A DNA stretch of 29,569 nt from Acidimicrobiia bacterium (GTDB lineage: Bacteria; Actinomycetota; Acidimicrobiia; Spongiisociales; UBA5794). The stretch's first letter is position 1; every line of letters starts with the position of its first letter. A program made the position numbers and the translations under genes. Shown here in pieces: positions 25,531 to 29,562 of the stretch. The stretch is taken from positions 1 through 29,569 of the forward strand of contig JBHHXA010000001.1 in assembly GCA_046756805.1 (NCBI GenBank), written 5' to 3'. The notes beneath the pieces were generated by a model, which was not told the DNA's origin, ran no database searches, and saw only the letters and a list, made by a program, of their open reading frames with translations.

Positions 25531-26274
25531 ATGCGCCACACCAGACTGAGATTCGTCGCAGCAGCCTGTGTCCTCGCGCTCGCGGCCGCGTCCTGCTCAG
25601 GAAGCGATGACGAGACGACGTCGTCCACGATCGCTGCCGATCCTGACTCCATCCTCCTCGCCGCGGCAACGGCGATGGGCGAAGTCGACACCGTCCGTTT
25701 CACCATCGAGCGCTCGGGTGAGCCGGTGTTCATCGACCTCGGCGACGAGCTCGGAGATCTCATCGAGTTCCGGGACGCGGAGGGCCGGTTCTCGGGTCCG
25801 AGCTCCGCGGACGCTCTCGTAACCGTCACCGTGACCGACTTCAACACGCAGGTCGGGGCCGTCGCCATCGATGGTGATATCTGGCTGTCGTTCGTCACCG
25901 GCACGTGGCAACGCGCTCCGGAGTCGTTCACCTTCGACCCCGCCACGCTGTTCGACCCGAGCCAGGGATTCCGACAGCTGTTCACGGACGGTCTGACGGA
26001 TGTCACCACGATAGGCCTCGAGGATCGCGACGGCATCGCGACCTACCACATCCGCGGCAACGCAGACGAGGAACGGGTCGAGGTGATCACTGCCCGGCTG
26101 GTTCGCGGCCAGTCGGTGACACTCGACGCCTGGATGGACCGATCCACAGGGCAGCTCGTCGATGCCGCGTTCGATACGCAGGTGACCGGCGGAACCGCTC
26201 ACTGGGAGATGACCTTCCGCGAGTACGGCGAGCCCGTGACGATCGACCCGCCGGATCTCGGAGCCGGTGGCTGA
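25531..26274 (+). CDS. LppX/LprAFG-family lipoprotein
   Basis: Lipobox 'LAAASC', 'AATAM..V.TVRFTI', 'FDPATLFDPSQG', 'EDRDG.ATYHIRG', 'WMDRSTGQL', 'MTFREYGEPVTI.PP'; typical of this LolA-like lipid-carrier family. Confidence 0.85.
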   Translation: MRHTRLRFVAAACVLALAAASCSGSDDETTSSTIAADPDSILLAAATAMGEVDTVRFTIERSGEPVFIDLGDELGDLIEFRDAEGRFSGPSSADALVTVTVTDFNTQVGAVAIDGDIWLSFVTGTWQRAPESFTFDPATLFDPSQGFRQLFTDGLTDVTTIGLEDRDGIATYHIRGNADEERVEVITARLVRGQSVTLDAWMDRSTGQLVDAAFDTQVTGGTAHWEMTFREYGEPVTIDPPDLGAGG

Positions 26275-27808
26275 CACCCGGCGCGAGCCGACACCCAGGG
26301 CCATCCTCGCGGTCGTTGCCTTCGGCGTCTTCGTCGCCGCAGACGACCTCACCGTCGTCACCACGATGCTCCGGCCGATCATCGGTGACCTCGGCATCGT
26401 TCTGCCAGACGGCCTCGACGACGCCGCCTGGATCGTCAACGCCTACCTCATCGCATTCGTCGCCGTCATGCCGTTCATGGGCAGGCTCAGCGACGTCATC
26501 GGGCGGAGACGGGTCTACATCGCAGCGATGGGGCTCTTCCTCGTCGGATCGCTCATCATCCCCATGTCGAATTCGTTGGGACCGTTCCTCGTCGGCCGGG
26601 TGCTGACCGCGCTCGGCGGCGGTGCGATGGTGCCGATCGGCATGGCCGTCGTCGCGGACGTCTACGAGGAACGCAAGCGGGCCAGGGCCCTGGGGATCCT
26701 CGGCGCGGTGGAGACGCTGGGCTGGGTATGGGGACCCCTCTACGGCGCCGTGCTCGTCCGGTTCCTCACCTGGAGGTGGCAGTTCTACCTGAACATCCCG
26801 CTTGCGGTGATCGGCATCGCCCTTGCGTGGTGGGGGCTCGCTGCGTTCGACAAGCGGAATCGACAGACCCGCGTCGACTGGGCGGGCGCCGTCACGCTCA
26901 CGGCCGCGCTCGTGGCGCTCAACCTCGCCCTGCTGGGCAGCGCCGAGATCCAGAGTGTCTCGGGGCTCGAGGAGCTGACGGGATCGGGTGGCGCCGGTCT
27001 GCGATGGTTCTTCCCGGTCGCCGCGATCGCCGCCGTTGCCTTCGCGGTCATCCAGGTACGAAGTGACGACCCCCTCATCGACTTCGGCCTATTCCACGGG
27101 CGAAACCTGACGGTGGCCGTTGCCGTGAACTTCCTCGTCGGTGCAACGCTCGTCATCGCGATGGTCGACGTTCCGCTCTTCGTAAATGTCGTCGAGATAG
27201 ACCTCGAACGCTCCGCTCTCATCTCAGGGGCGGTGCTCAGCGCCCTCACGGCCACGATGGCCGTCACGTCGTACCTGGGCGGCCCGCTCACGGAACGCAC
27301 CTGGTACCGGCCACCCGTCCTTGCCGGGCTCGTCGGCGCAACCGCCGCGTTCCTCCTCATGGGCCTCGGGTGGACCGTGGACACTCCGTACGGCCTGATG
27401 GCGGTGGAGCTCGCTCTCCTCGGAGCTGGTTTCGGTCTGGTCGTCGCTCCCACCGCGGCCGCCGTGGTCGATGCAGCCCCTCCCGACCGTAGGGGCACCG
27501 CGGCGAGCCTGGTCATCGTGCTCCGCCTCATCGGTCTCAGCGTCGGGCTCTCAGGGCTCACGGCCTACGGGCTGGCCCGGTTCAACCAGCTCCGGACCAC
27601 ACTCGAGCTGCCACCCATCACCTCGCCCGATTACGTCGACGCCGTCACCAGGGGACAGGCGGAGTTGACGACCCAAGCCATCGCCGAGACGTTCGTCGCC
27701 GCAGCGGTGGTGGCGGCCCTGGCGCTGCTCGTCGCGTTCTCGATGCGGAGGGTGACGGCAGGTCGGAGCCAGGACGCACGCGACCTCGACTCGCCGCCCA
27801 GGCCCTGA
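26267..27808 (+). CDS. 14-TM DHA2 MFS transporter, P55/Rv1410c-like
   Basis: Motif A 'GRLSDVIGRRRV', 'WIVNAYLIAF..VMP', 'GPLYG', 'MVDVPLF', 'LRLIGLSVG.SGLTAYGLARFNQ'. Overlaps the lipoprotein stop by 8 bp. Confidence 0.9.
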   Translation: MADTRREPTPRAILAVVAFGVFVAADDLTVVTTMLRPIIGDLGIVLPDGLDDAAWIVNAYLIAFVAVMPFMGRLSDVIGRRRVYIAAMGLFLVGSLIIPMSNSLGPFLVGRVLTALGGGAMVPIGMAVVADVYEERKRARALGILGAVETLGWVWGPLYGAVLVRFLTWRWQFYLNIPLAVIGIALAWWGLAAFDKRNRQTRVDWAGAVTLTAALVALNLALLGSAEIQSVSGLEELTGSGGAGLRWFFPVAAIAAVAFAVIQVRSDDPLIDFGLFHGRNLTVAVAVNFLVGATLVIAMVDVPLFVNVVEIDLERSALISGAVLSALTATMAVTSYLGGPLTERTWYRPPVLAGLVGATAAFLLMGLGWTVDTPYGLMAVELALLGAGFGLVVAPTAAAVVDAAPPDRRGTAASLVIVLRLIGLSVGLSGLTAYGLARFNQLRTTLELPPITSPDYVDAVTRGQAELTTQAIAETFVAAAVVAALALLVAFSMRRVTAGRSQDARDLDSPPRP

Positions 27809-27887
27809 TCGGTCTGCGCCGCAGTGCGCACGGCGCAGGTGTCGCTACCTTCTCCTCGTTGCACGCACACACCCCGGGGGTACGGTC

Positions 27888-28559
27888 ATGAAGGATTTCC
27901 TCGAGCGAAACATTCTCGCGGTGCTCGCGGTCCTCGGAGCATTGACGCTGGCGGCGCTGGCACTGTCGATCTTCCTGCTCACCCGGCTCGGGTCCTCGGA
28001 ATCGGACATCGACGCCCTGGAAGCGGAGCTGACCGAGGCGAGAACGGAGGTCGAACAGCTACGCGGGACGCTCGCCCTGTTCTCGACCCAGGCCGCGACC
28101 CTTCAGGGTGCGCTGGGTGATCTGGCTCCCACGGTGGGCGCCGCGCTCGACGAGGCGGTGGCAGGGTTGGAGTCGTTCCGTTCGTCCACGATTGCTTTCG
28201 ACGTCCCGATCGACCAGACGATCCCGATCTCGACGTCGCTCGACCTGAATCGGACCCTCGAGGTCCCGATCAGCACCACGCTGCCGGTCGACGAAGTCAT
28301 CGAGACCACCATCAGGATCAACGGGCCGTTCGGCGTCGACATCCCCCTCGACGTCACTGTGCCGATCCAGCTCGAGTTCCCCATCGACCTCACCGTGCCC
28401 ATCCCGGTGAACGAGCGAGTCCCGATCGAAACCTCCATTCCGGTCAACCTCACTGTGCCGATCTCGATCCCCGTCGCAGGAACGGAGCTGGCCACGCTCG
28501 CCGAGAGCCTCCAGCAAGGGCTCGAATCCCTCGGCGAGGTGCTCACCGGTCTCGGGTGA
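27888..28559 (+). CDS. Hypothetical membrane-anchored protein with coiled coil and Ile/Val/Pro/Thr beta-repeat region
   Basis: N-terminal TM (about aa 8-33), heptad-like helix, about 100 aa of alternating [IV]P[IV]xx[TS]-type repeats, C-terminal amphipathic helix. Confidence 0.75.
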   Translation: MKDFLERNILAVLAVLGALTLAALALSIFLLTRLGSSESDIDALEAELTEARTEVEQLRGTLALFSTQAATLQGALGDLAPTVGAALDEAVAGLESFRSSTIAFDVPIDQTIPISTSLDLNRTLEVPISTTLPVDEVIETTIRINGPFGVDIPLDVTVPIQLEFPIDLTVPIPVNERVPIETSIPVNLTVPISIPVAGTELATLAESLQQGLESLGEVLTGLG

Positions 28560-29562
28560 GCGATCCTTCACGCGGTGCGTCGGCGACCGACTGCGGTGTG
28601 CCCACGTCGAGCGGCCGCTCCGTGCGAAGAAACACGAAGAAGCTCCACGTGGCGAGCGCCGACAGCAGATGCCAGATCGCATGAGCCTGGATGAGCGAAT
28701 CGGGGCGACACCAGGCATGGTCGGCGGTGCCCGTGAGCCAAATCGCATAGGCGACCACGAACGAACCGATCCCGATCCAGAACCAGGGGGCGTAGCTACG
28801 GCGCCCATCGGGAGCGTGACGGGCGAGGATCGCGGGGAGCCAGAAGAACACGACCCACCAGTAGTCGCCCGGGTGAGCCAGCATCTCTGCGGGGGTGATG
28901 CCGAATGCCGCGGCGACCGGGAATCCAACGAGTCCCGAAAGAGGGCGCATCAACGGTGACCACCATCGGTAAAGCACCTCGGAGATGACCCAGATACCTA
29001 TCGACACTCCGAACAGATCGAGCCCGATGCCCAGGTCGGAGCCGAAGACCCAGAAGGCGATTGCATACCCCACCACCACGCCCGCGTAGACGCGGAACAT
29101 CAGGCCCTCTCGCCATCGGCCCAGCGCCGAGAGGTTCACGAGCCACGGGATGAGAATGAAGGTCACCATCGAGACGTTGTCGATCCACGCCCCGAAGAAC
29201 GTGTGGCTGCCGTGCATCACCATCGATCCCGGTCCCAGGAACACCGCCGCCGAGGCGTACAGCAGGGCCGTCGGGGCGTTACCGATGAAGCGGTTCAGAC
29301 GGGGTCGCTCGTTCGCGACGTCGCGCGCCAACGTCGCGAACATGGCCGTGCCTGCAAAGACGAAGCCCAGATTGCCGAGGGTGTTGACCGGCTCCCGCAG
29401 CAGGCCGGATGCAACGCGTTCACACCATCGCGAGATCTCGCCGATCGCCTGCTCGTTGTCCGCAGCAGCCCACCACCCTGCGGCTCCCGCCGCCACGAAC
29501 AGCGCCGCAAACGCCACGAGGCCGCCTGCGACGACACGAAGGGGCGTGTACCTCGAGCGCAT
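28543..29562 (-). CDS. Ceramidase-like (CREST superfamily) membrane hydrolase
   Basis: 'WCER', 'REPVNTLGN', 'GSMVMH' (SxxxH), 'ID', 'HAIWH' (HxxxH), multiple TM segments. Confidence 0.82.
   Translation of the reverse strand: MRSRYTPLRVVAGGLVAFAALFVAAGAAGWWAAADNEQAIGEISRWCERVASGLLREPVNTLGNLGFVFAGTAMFATLARDVANERPRLNRFIGNAPTALLYASAAVFLGPGSMVMHGSHTFFGAWIDNVSMVTFILIPWLVNLSALGRWREGLMFRVYAGVVVGYAIAFWVFGSDLGIGLDLFGVSIGIWVISEVLYRWWSPLMRPLSGLVGFPVAAAFGITPAEMLAHPGDYWWVVFFWLPAILARHAPDGRRSYAPWFWIGIGSFVVAYAIWLTGTADHAWCRPDSLIQAHAIWHLLSALATWSFFVFLRTERPLDVGTPQSVADAPREGSLTRDR

Follow-up and report, generated by a model that had tools for sequence, protein, structure and literature searches.

In mycobacteria, the lipoprotein LprG (Rv1411c) and the transporter Rv1410c (P55) form a pair for the export of triacylglycerides and lipoglycans (8PNL; PMC10576003; PMC4709180), and the described system consists of two genes (PMC10576003, PMC6519032). 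Rv1410 hands triacylglyceride to LprG via periplasmic extensions of the transmembrane (TM) helices 11 and 12, and a Glu-Arg ion lock in the central cavity (E157/R426 in MHAS2168) was described by Remm et al. as a hallmark of Rv1410 homologues (PMC10576003). The route of lipids out of the cytoplasmic membrane and through the wall has yet to be worked out; in the well-studied LprG/Rv1410 system of M. tuberculosis, it has been followed as far as LprG. Here, an open reading frame (ORF) is described that probably encodes the missing wall-crossing piece of an exporter of this type. It was found at positions 27888..28559 of the forward strand in a stretch of 29,569 nucleotides from an Acidimicrobiia bacterium (GCA_046756805.1, contig JBHHXA010000001.1, positions 1 to 29,569; in the following, the window). 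The ORF starts with ATG and encodes a protein of 223 amino acids (P0001), which will be called the stalk-hairpin protein. An initial annotation of the window had proposed that it is an envelope-spanning lipid conduit that acts together with the products of the two genes upstream.

Both upstream genes are also encoded on the forward strand. The first (25531..26274) encodes an LprG-like lipoprotein of the LppX_LprAFG family (PF07161, 2.7e-21); in the NCBIfam scan it matched the SCO4651-family lipoproteins with 7.4e-11, which is below the cut-off. It overlaps by 8 nt with the start of the second gene (26267..27808), which encodes a DHA2 transporter of the major facilitator superfamily (MFS; MFS_1, 2.1e-46), a lipid exporter of the Rv1410/P55 type. 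The best sequence match of the transporter in the PDB was MHAS2168 (8PNL, 4.5e-45), with an alignment that spans residues 10-491, and the next one was EfpA (2.6e-24). The ion lock is kept, i.e., the Glu of AVETLG aligns to AAQELG and the Arg of VLRLIG to VARMIG, and the motif GLxRFNQ is also conserved. These sequence features place the transporter in the Rv1410/MHAS2168 lineage and not among DHA2 pumps in general.

The gene order of lipoprotein, transporter and stalk-hairpin protein was maintained at sequence identities of 43-51%. In a survey of 301 genomes of the class, LppX_LprAFG was present in 28 genomes, the stalk-hairpin protein in 13 genomes from three families, and both in 10 genomes. 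In all ten of these genomes the two genes are on the same strand and within 4 kb of one another; in genome G266, two unrelated genes of the opposite strand lie between them. Homologues occurring apart from LppX and MFS genes had been named beforehand as an observation that would refute the proposal; the reverse was seen, with LppX carried alongside in 10 of the 13 genomes with the stalk-hairpin protein.

Fusions were frequent. One ORF encodes both transporter and stalk-hairpin protein in seven of the 13 genomes, single-contig genomes among them, and in many relatives an in-frame cytoplasmic linker takes the place of the spacer between the two genes. All 54 database hits of more than 391 amino acids turned out to be fusions of the two proteins (421-878 aa, mostly 730-880). 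Their annotation is just "MFS transporter", except for one that is listed as a "DHA2 family triacylglyceride efflux pump". The protein P0082 comprises the full transporter and the full stalk-hairpin protein. The fused form also appears to be carried by cultured Ilumatobacter species. A triple fusion was found in one metagenomic protein, P0084 (1056 aa), in which a lipoprotein part with lipobox and LppX domain is followed by an additional TM helix, the transporter, and the stalk-hairpin protein. The additional hydrophobic helix (residues ~235-265) is located at the junction of the lipoprotein and the transporter and leads the chain back into the cytoplasm, which makes the topology of the triple fusion coherent. 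By this sequence argument, it is probably a functional protein rather than an assembly artefact. An AlphaFold2 (AF2) model of the natural fusion P0240 (mean predicted local distance difference test, pLDDT, 78.7) contained the transporter with long helices TM11 and TM12, a disordered cytoplasmic linker of ~40 residues, and the same module as the separate protein.

The fusions also bear on the location of the module. The C-terminus of a 14-TM DHA2 pump is cytoplasmic, therefore the TM segment of a fused stalk-hairpin protein runs from inside to outside, and stalk, hairpin and C-terminal helix come to lie on the extracytoplasmic side, where the LprG-like carrier is also found. The predicted topology of the fusions thus shows the outside location of stalk and hairpin that had been supposed at the outset, and synteny, frequent fusion to the transporter and the one triple fusion bear out the proposed functional link to the LppX/MFS pair. 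Taken together, it is very probable that in these lineages the stalk-hairpin protein is a subunit of the exporter in both the physical and the functional sense.

The architecture of the protein was modeled with AF2 using an alignment of 114 sequences. The mean pLDDT of the monomer was 93.6, and the predicted template modeling score (pTM) was 0.50. A long helix (residues 9-98) contains a TM segment with the orientation N-in/C-out (residues ~9-31, 27912..27980) and continues as an extracytoplasmic stalk of 67 residues and ~100 Å with an a/d heptad pattern (residues 32-98, 27981..28181). The stalk is followed by β-strand 1 (residues 101-145, 28188..28322; AF2, conservation, and coupling analysis), the hairpin tip G-P-F-G-V (residues 146-150, 28323..28337; AF2 and conservation), β-strand 2 (residues 151-195, 28338..28472; AF2), which pairs with strand 1 in the register i+j = 296, and a C-terminal amphipathic helix (residues 200-222, 28485..28553; AF2 and coupling analysis). 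The C-terminal helix has a helical hydrophobic moment of 1.67, and both methods place it antiparallel on the stalk residues ~75-98, where the two helices form a "neck". All of these features are on the forward strand.

The hairpin is very regular. Alternate residues between positions 102 and 196 are V, I, L, M, F, or W in 0.84-1.00 of the 114 homologues, and the pattern is not due to chance, because it is conserved in hundreds of sequences. In strand 1 one face is hydrophobic and the other is polar. The hydrophobic face is interrupted by conserved polar rungs, namely E110, T116, R122, T130, E136, and T140 in strand 1 and E176 and T182 in strand 2. All prolines are on the polar face and have a spacing of six residues (107, 113, 119, 127, 133 in strand 1; 153, 159, 165, 171, 173, 179, 185, 191 in strand 2); P159 and P165 are invariant. 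At the tip, P147 and G149 are conserved to ~91% and position 148 is occupied by a hydrophobic residue. Exposed at the distal end, this residue could be the point of contact with a partner or with a hydrophobic layer at the surface.

As a check of the fold that is independent of AlphaFold, 202 sequences (Meff 176) were subjected to a mean-field direct coupling analysis (DCA). Couplings were strongest on the diagonal i+j = 296, with 15 pairs above the 97th percentile, and 294, 298, and 300 stood out beside it. Between the helices, the pairs 98-209 and 91-216 ranked highest, and thus the C-terminal helix packs antiparallel on the end of the stalk. R122 and E176, which are diagonal neighbours on the "hydrophobic" face, exhibited charge-swap covariation (RE 103, ER 15, KE 9, EK 5). 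A TM segment, a helix, two strands of ~45 residues, an NGPFG turn and a returning helix had already been read from the sequence by the initial annotation, and the predicted structure, together with the DCA register, shows the same architecture.

Next to the fixed hairpin, the stalk is the variable part of the protein. In the 202 sequences, stalk lengths fell into the discrete classes of 25, 32, 39, 53, 60, 67, 74, and 81 residues, and the length modulo 7 was 4 in 161 of the 202 sequences, compared to ~29 expected by chance, with the qualification that relatives are not independent in this count. The many length classes indicate several separate insertions or deletions, all in multiples of seven. 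In the same sequences the length of the hairpin was nearly invariant: strand 1 had 45 residues in 172 sequences, strand 2 had 45 residues in 149 and 43 residues in 43 sequences, and the rare insertions comprised six residues, i.e., one repeat. A hairpin that folds back along the stalk or the membrane was rejected as an arrangement, given the variable stalk (25-81 residues), the fixed hairpin and the position of the C-terminal helix at the end of the stalk.

Its sequence marks the stalk as a canonical left-handed coiled coil. Its hydrophobic positions (34, 37, 41, 44, 48, 51, 55, 58, 65, 69, 72, 76, 79, 83, 87, 91, 94, 97) follow a 3-4 pattern that, counted back from the hairpin, runs over the full length. 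The Fourier power was 57.6 at a period of 3.5, 44.3 at the adjacent period of 3.6, and at most 14.7 at 3.0, 3.67, and 4.0. The a positions are occupied by L/A/V/I and the d positions by L/A/F/V, with polar residues at e (R/E/Q) and at g (Q/D/E). The C-terminal helix is the partner helix within the monomer, and it covers just the top ~23 residues of the stalk; therefore, the remaining four to eight heptads need helices of other chains. A parallel homo-oligomer would be the simplest solution for these unpaired heptads. A homo-oligomeric coiled coil is likely, in line with the oligomer that the initial annotation had envisaged. A narrow seam of a and d positions is typical of coils with two to four strands, not of wide α-barrels, and thus two to four chains are the most likely order, while the residue composition at a and d did not discriminate among dimer, trimer, and tetramer.

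The consequences for the hairpins can be outlined. Each of them has ~40 large hydrophobic side chains in need of burial, and n chains on a common axis would form a rod of 2n β-strands with the even-numbered residues inside. A bundle of hairpins with the hydrophobic face inward is somewhat favoured. By standard barrel geometry, six strands would enclose a packed core, and eight to ten strands would have a radius of ~7-9 Å; lipocalins and fatty-acid-binding proteins, which hold lipids, have a comparable radius. With a rise of 1.5 Å for each residue of the helix and of 2.6-3.3 Å for each residue of the strands, the reach of the protein from the membrane is estimated at ~21-25 nm.

From these results the following mechanism is proposed, to the whole of which a probability of about 0.4 is assigned: a homo-oligomeric stalk-and-β-rod subunit of the exporter that offers lipid a hydrophobic path across the wall. 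The stalk-hairpin protein would serve the LprG/Rv1410-type lipid exporter as an accessory subunit on the extracytoplasmic side. Its N-in/C-out TM helix would continue into the ~100 Å stalk of a parallel homo-oligomer, most likely of two to four chains. The fixed hairpins of 45+45 residues would pack their hydrophobic faces into a β-rod or a narrow β-tube, and the C-terminal helices would fold back and clamp the neck. Such an assembly would span ~21-25 nm and thus the inner wall zone and the peptidoglycan of a monoderm. The transporter would extract the lipid and pass it to the LprG-like carrier, and the stalk-hairpin protein would receive that lipid and guide it along or inside the hydrophobic β-surface to the cell surface. 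The lipid-receiving role is proposed because the protein is tethered, and often fused, to the transporter. What we infer is oligomerisation, for which the sequence evidence is strong, that the hydrophobic face is buried within the oligomer, how far the protein reaches and, most of all, that it guides lipid; direct guidance of lipid by the protein is the most tentative part and is less likely than not.

Several results limit this mechanism or weigh against it. A complex prediction with four full-length copies, made without controls, yielded an ipSAE of 0.02 with a poorly folded partner and is neutral with regard to oligomerisation. A co-evolution search for a second strand band, which would be the register between protomers, retrieved only 296 with 294, 298, and 300; an isolated hairpin and a barrel with a shear of ±2 per protomer are inseparable by such bands. 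The a/d-only seam suggests an oligomer of low order, the β-core of which may be solid. Conserved charged residues (E110, R122-E176, E136) break the hydrophobic face, and the prolines at a third of the positions of one face remove NH donors, which could weaken the edge-to-edge closure of a barrel. Two features of the initial annotation found no support so far. It had envisaged a long β-barrel or groove with a hydrophobic lumen; the seam fits a 2-4-mer and a rod of 4-8 strands, either solid or at best with a narrow lipocalin-like channel, rather than a wide tunnel. In addition, the face that was read as hydrophobic bears the conserved charged rungs.

The distribution of the family also weighs against an obligatory tie to the exporter. 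In the class, 18 genomes contain LppX without the stalk-hairpin protein, and it was also not found in ~370 other genomes of the phylum; therefore, the LprG/MFS pair works without it elsewhere. Conversely, three genomes of genus g29 encode the protein with a long stalk in the absence of LppX and of an Rv1410-type transporter. Their best MFS matches had identities of 26-27%, compared to 64-73% for true orthologues. Here, the neighbours are a DUF6982 protein, a pirin, an ABC exporter, and a subtilase; in genome G098 (L025:5524-5982) the DUF6982 protein (1.1e-22) is the divergent neighbour, and ABC exporter and subtilase are nearby.

In addition, relatives with short stalks (165-195 aa) occur in varied and unrelated gene contexts, i.e., after EpsH/EpsI, beside an ArAE/FUSC exporter, after MscL, after an unknown protein of 747 aa, and in the context def-fmt-rpe-rib. 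On a Chloroflexi-type metagenome contig (L005/L006:4373-6561), the family member P0050 follows the exosortase EpsH and EpsI, 31 nt past EpsI, and this position hints at a role together with another envelope-export system. The most widely seen short form, P0211 (69 contigs), is located beside a gene for an ArAE_1/FUSC_2-type exporter (L030-L034:3300-5552) and also beside a divergent gene of unknown function (183-197 aa). The latter was considered as a paralogue of the stalk-hairpin protein and was rejected (hhalign probability of 0.3 for the 183-aa neighbour). On a contig of GCA_964347285.1 (L009:1-6588) a short-stalk member adjoins def-fmt-rpe-ribD-ribE-ribBA, and the downstream gene of 472 aa encodes a PhoX-like protein, not an MFS transporter. 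The neighbourhood of lprG-Rv1410c in M. tuberculosis is similar with respect to fmt, rpe, and rib, and this neighbourhood might mark the ancestral position. The tie to the exporter thus stood with regard to co-occurrence and fusion, and a restriction of the family to this exporter did not, in view of genus g29 and the short-stalk contexts. It looks as if the module is a general envelope device that came to serve the LprG/Rv1410-type exporter and was joined to it in repeated fusions.

The occurrence without the exporter in varied contexts would be readily understood if the protein were a solid strut, wall tether or surface-exposed spike, with a packed core and no cargo path, which fixes a membrane partner (the lipid exporter at this locus, other membrane proteins elsewhere) in its distance or position relative to the wall while the lipid stays on the LprG-like carrier. 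The variable, heptad-quantised stalk with its fixed head has the look of a spacer or ruler and can be compared with Lpp, the length of which sets the width of the periplasm (PMC5736177, PMC8824477). The a/d-only seam points to a 2-4-mer, and by barrel geometry the β-core of 4-8 strands in such an oligomer would be packed. In addition, there is a precedent in EsaA of the T7SSb, a helix-β-helix protein with a stalk that was proposed to traverse the Gram-positive peptidoglycan (10.1101/2020.08.17.254201), although the structural match had a VIA Z of 3.7, which is at noise level. However, it is not obvious why a strut would be fused repeatedly and 1:1 to one particular lipid exporter, and a strut does not require anything as elaborate as 2 x 45 residues in which hydrophobic and polar positions strictly alternate and polar rungs are conserved. 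This explanation is the main competitor, yet not a probable one. Somewhat less probable still is the far end of the other side, a true monoderm lipid conduit, in which three to five hairpins on a heptad-tunable stalk would form a lipocalin-like β-tube of 12-15 nm and lipid from the Rv1410-type transporter and the LprG-like carrier would pass through the peptidoglycan to the surface.

The 1:1 fusions allow also for a different emphasis, because any oligomer of the module will also oligomerise the transporter. The coiled coil could be a scaffold that gathers two to four pumps and their carriers, or it could sense the wall or gate the pump, with the hairpin as a stabilising or wall-contacting head; the disordered cytoplasmic linker of ~40 residues would let the TM helix dock freely. 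Yet Rv1410-type pumps function in mycobacteria without the stalk-hairpin module (PMC10576003), as they do in the 18 genomes of the class, and both conservation and constancy of length are highest in the hairpin and not in the stalk, so that a scaffold is improbable. Least of all is a membrane-active device to be expected, i.e., a hairpin that acts on or in a lipid layer, the own membrane or an outer layer, and forms a pore, a stem as in toxins, or a device for fusion or of the spanin type. Stems of pore-forming toxins (lysenin, aerolysin, anthrax protective antigen, PA) are among the weak fold look-alikes, the conserved hydrophobic residue at the tip is flanked by G and P, and TM helix and coiled coil weakly matched an Rz-like spanin family (E 0.0011). 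The strands of 45 residues are, however, about four times as long as required for a bilayer, a hairpin folded back onto its own membrane is hard to combine with a stalk that varies in length while the hairpin does not, and PADLOC yielded no matches, PHROG yielded none in two other members, and the locus is a non-mobile housekeeping locus. Thus, the exporter subunit with a hydrophobic path across the wall is retained as the working explanation.

The stalk-hairpin protein is the founding member of a large protein family. A word-indexed search retrieved 65 relatives, and an exhaustive phmmer search of 1.84 billion representatives retrieved 574 clusters with a threshold of E <= 1e-3, of which 251 passed E <= 1e-10. 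According to the source names, the close relatives are from Acidimicrobiia, Ilumatobacter, and Ilumatobacteraceae, and the distant short forms are from Chloroflexi and Anaerolineae. In the rest of the phylum the family was essentially absent, with one marginal match in the ~370 genomes. The Pfam/NCBIfam scan of the protein yielded best matches with E 0.05-0.08, far below the cut-offs, and no family matched consistently over 114 members. The sequence-profile search of the PDB revealed no relative, the only matches (E >= 0.0065) being on the helix, and no match was found with PADLOC. A single match to YhdP was found with Pfam in one of the 114 members (3.5e-4), and VPS13C was matched with E 0.3 in the helical part only.

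Structure searches gave a similar picture. Foldseek against the PDB retrieved nothing significant (best E 7.8e-3, TM-score < 0.2), and VIA-align of the Foldseek candidates gave Z <= 5.0, which is noise. In a wide VIA-align scan, Z values up to 8.4 were reached solely by unrelated long helices and coiled coils, which is the noise level of the tool. The BFVD search yielded nothing above noise, and its best match was a podovirus lower collar protein (E 7.6e-4). Stems of the aerolysin/lysenin type were matched weakly (Foldseek E 0.016-0.09, TM-score 0.10-0.15; VIA Z 2.0-2.5, covering just the hairpin). The Rz-like spanin match (phrog_214) was obtained for P0001 only and covered residues 11-74, i.e., the TM helix and coiled coil; the match was judged to be compositional, and an assignment as i-spanin was rejected, since PHROG did not match two other members and the context is chromosomal housekeeping. 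An adaptor of the HlyD/EmrA type was also rejected, because Pfam and NCBIfam contained no HlyD match and the AF2 topology is helix, β-hairpin, helix. What is firmly new is the large family that the protein founds, which has neither annotation nor a solved structural counterpart, and the addition of a third component, often in fused form, to an exporter of known type.

The target frame has a GC content of 0.66/0.43/0.85 at the three codon positions, which resembles that of the neighbouring MFS gene (0.70/0.49/0.86); therefore, the coding frame is this one and none of the long antisense ORFs, which lack such a pattern. The spacer between the two genes has a length of 79 nt (27809..27887, +) and contains a Shine-Dalgarno-like run, GGGGG, 7 nt 5' of the ATG. 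It had been proposed that the gene may have its own promoter. The hexamer TACCTT is indeed present at 27846-27851; however, a consensus scan found no sigma-70-type promoter, nor did it find a terminator. An 8-bp inverted repeat, CTGCGCCG ... CGGCGCAG, is located within the spacer at 27814-27838, and the folding energy of the spacer RNA was no better than that of shuffled sequences (z = 0.49). Downstream, a convergent gene for a ceramidase-like membrane protein (28543-29562, reverse strand; PF05875, 9.7e-13) overlaps by 17 nt with the 3' end of the target gene. No ceramidase-like homologue was found near the stalk-hairpin gene in the related loci examined, several of which were short, and the adjacency looks incidental. 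The surrounding genes are chromosomal housekeeping genes, and the locus is non-mobile.

A large family that is repeatedly fused to an LprG/Rv1410-type pump has thus been hidden in the databases behind the annotation "MFS transporter". Its architecture is simple, highly regular and predicted with very high confidence, and its dimensions match those of a Gram-positive wall. An amphipathic hairpin with strands of 45 residues that is punctuated by prolines has no solved counterpart, and in the combination of a heptad-quantised stalk and a fixed head, nature provides a clear case of a molecular ruler. If the less probable reading as a true lipid conduit should hold, the protein would be a β-structured Gram-positive counterpart of the MCE and Lpt bridges, which is reused with other exporters in Chloroflexi. 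The question is directly testable, given the apparent presence of the fused form in cultured Ilumatobacter.

The shape of the hairpin can be compared with homo-oligomeric β-tubes, i.e., the lower collar and tail proteins of phi29, Andhra, and P68, the stems of lysenin, aerolysin, and anthrax PA, and the FliF collar. On both sides a two-stranded antiparallel hairpin with 30-45 residues per strand is contributed by each protomer. The similarity is an analogy (E 7.6e-4 to 8e-3, TM-score < 0.2, Z <= 3.3, no sequence relation), and the known tubes are 7-34-mers with polar lumens, whereas for the stalk-hairpin protein two to four chains with the hydrophobic face inward are suggested. MCE needles (PqiB, LetB, mycobacterial Mce1) and Lpt/AsmA bridges resemble the proposed mechanism in concept, as proteins that are anchored in the cytoplasmic membrane and line a hydrophobic path for lipids through an aqueous or wall compartment, but no clear homology to them was found, and the stalk-hairpin protein is predicted to be a bundle of β-hairpins on a coiled coil. 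Braun's lipoprotein Lpp shares the coiled coil, in which length changes in heptad units set a distance in the envelope; it is a small trimeric, peptidoglycan-linked lipoprotein of diderms, is unrelated in sequence, and has neither a TM helix nor a β-hairpin. EsaA/YueB (7JQE) is a membrane-anchored, elongated homo-oligomer with a helix up, a β tip, and a helix down, and it is also part of an export machine. It is, however, large, has several TM helices, and consists mainly of a helical stalk with a small β tip, while in the stalk-hairpin protein the β-hairpin is the longer part.

Among the partners of DHA2 transporters, EmrA of EmrAB-TolC is comparable in having a single N-terminal TM helix, an MFS partner, and a long oligomeric hairpin that bridges the envelope, but EmrA-type adaptors contain an α-hairpin, lipoyl and β-barrel domains, none of which is present in the stalk-hairpin protein with its β-hairpin. 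The closest described system is LprG/Rv1410c, which shares with this locus an LppX_LprAFG lipoprotein, an overlapping gene for a DHA2 MFS transporter, the ion lock, and long helices TM11 and TM12. The host class is monoderm and has no mycomembrane, and thus the destination of the lipid differs from that in mycobacteria. Finally, the mycobacterial exporter has two components, whereas in this class a third gene, or a fused module in its place, was found.

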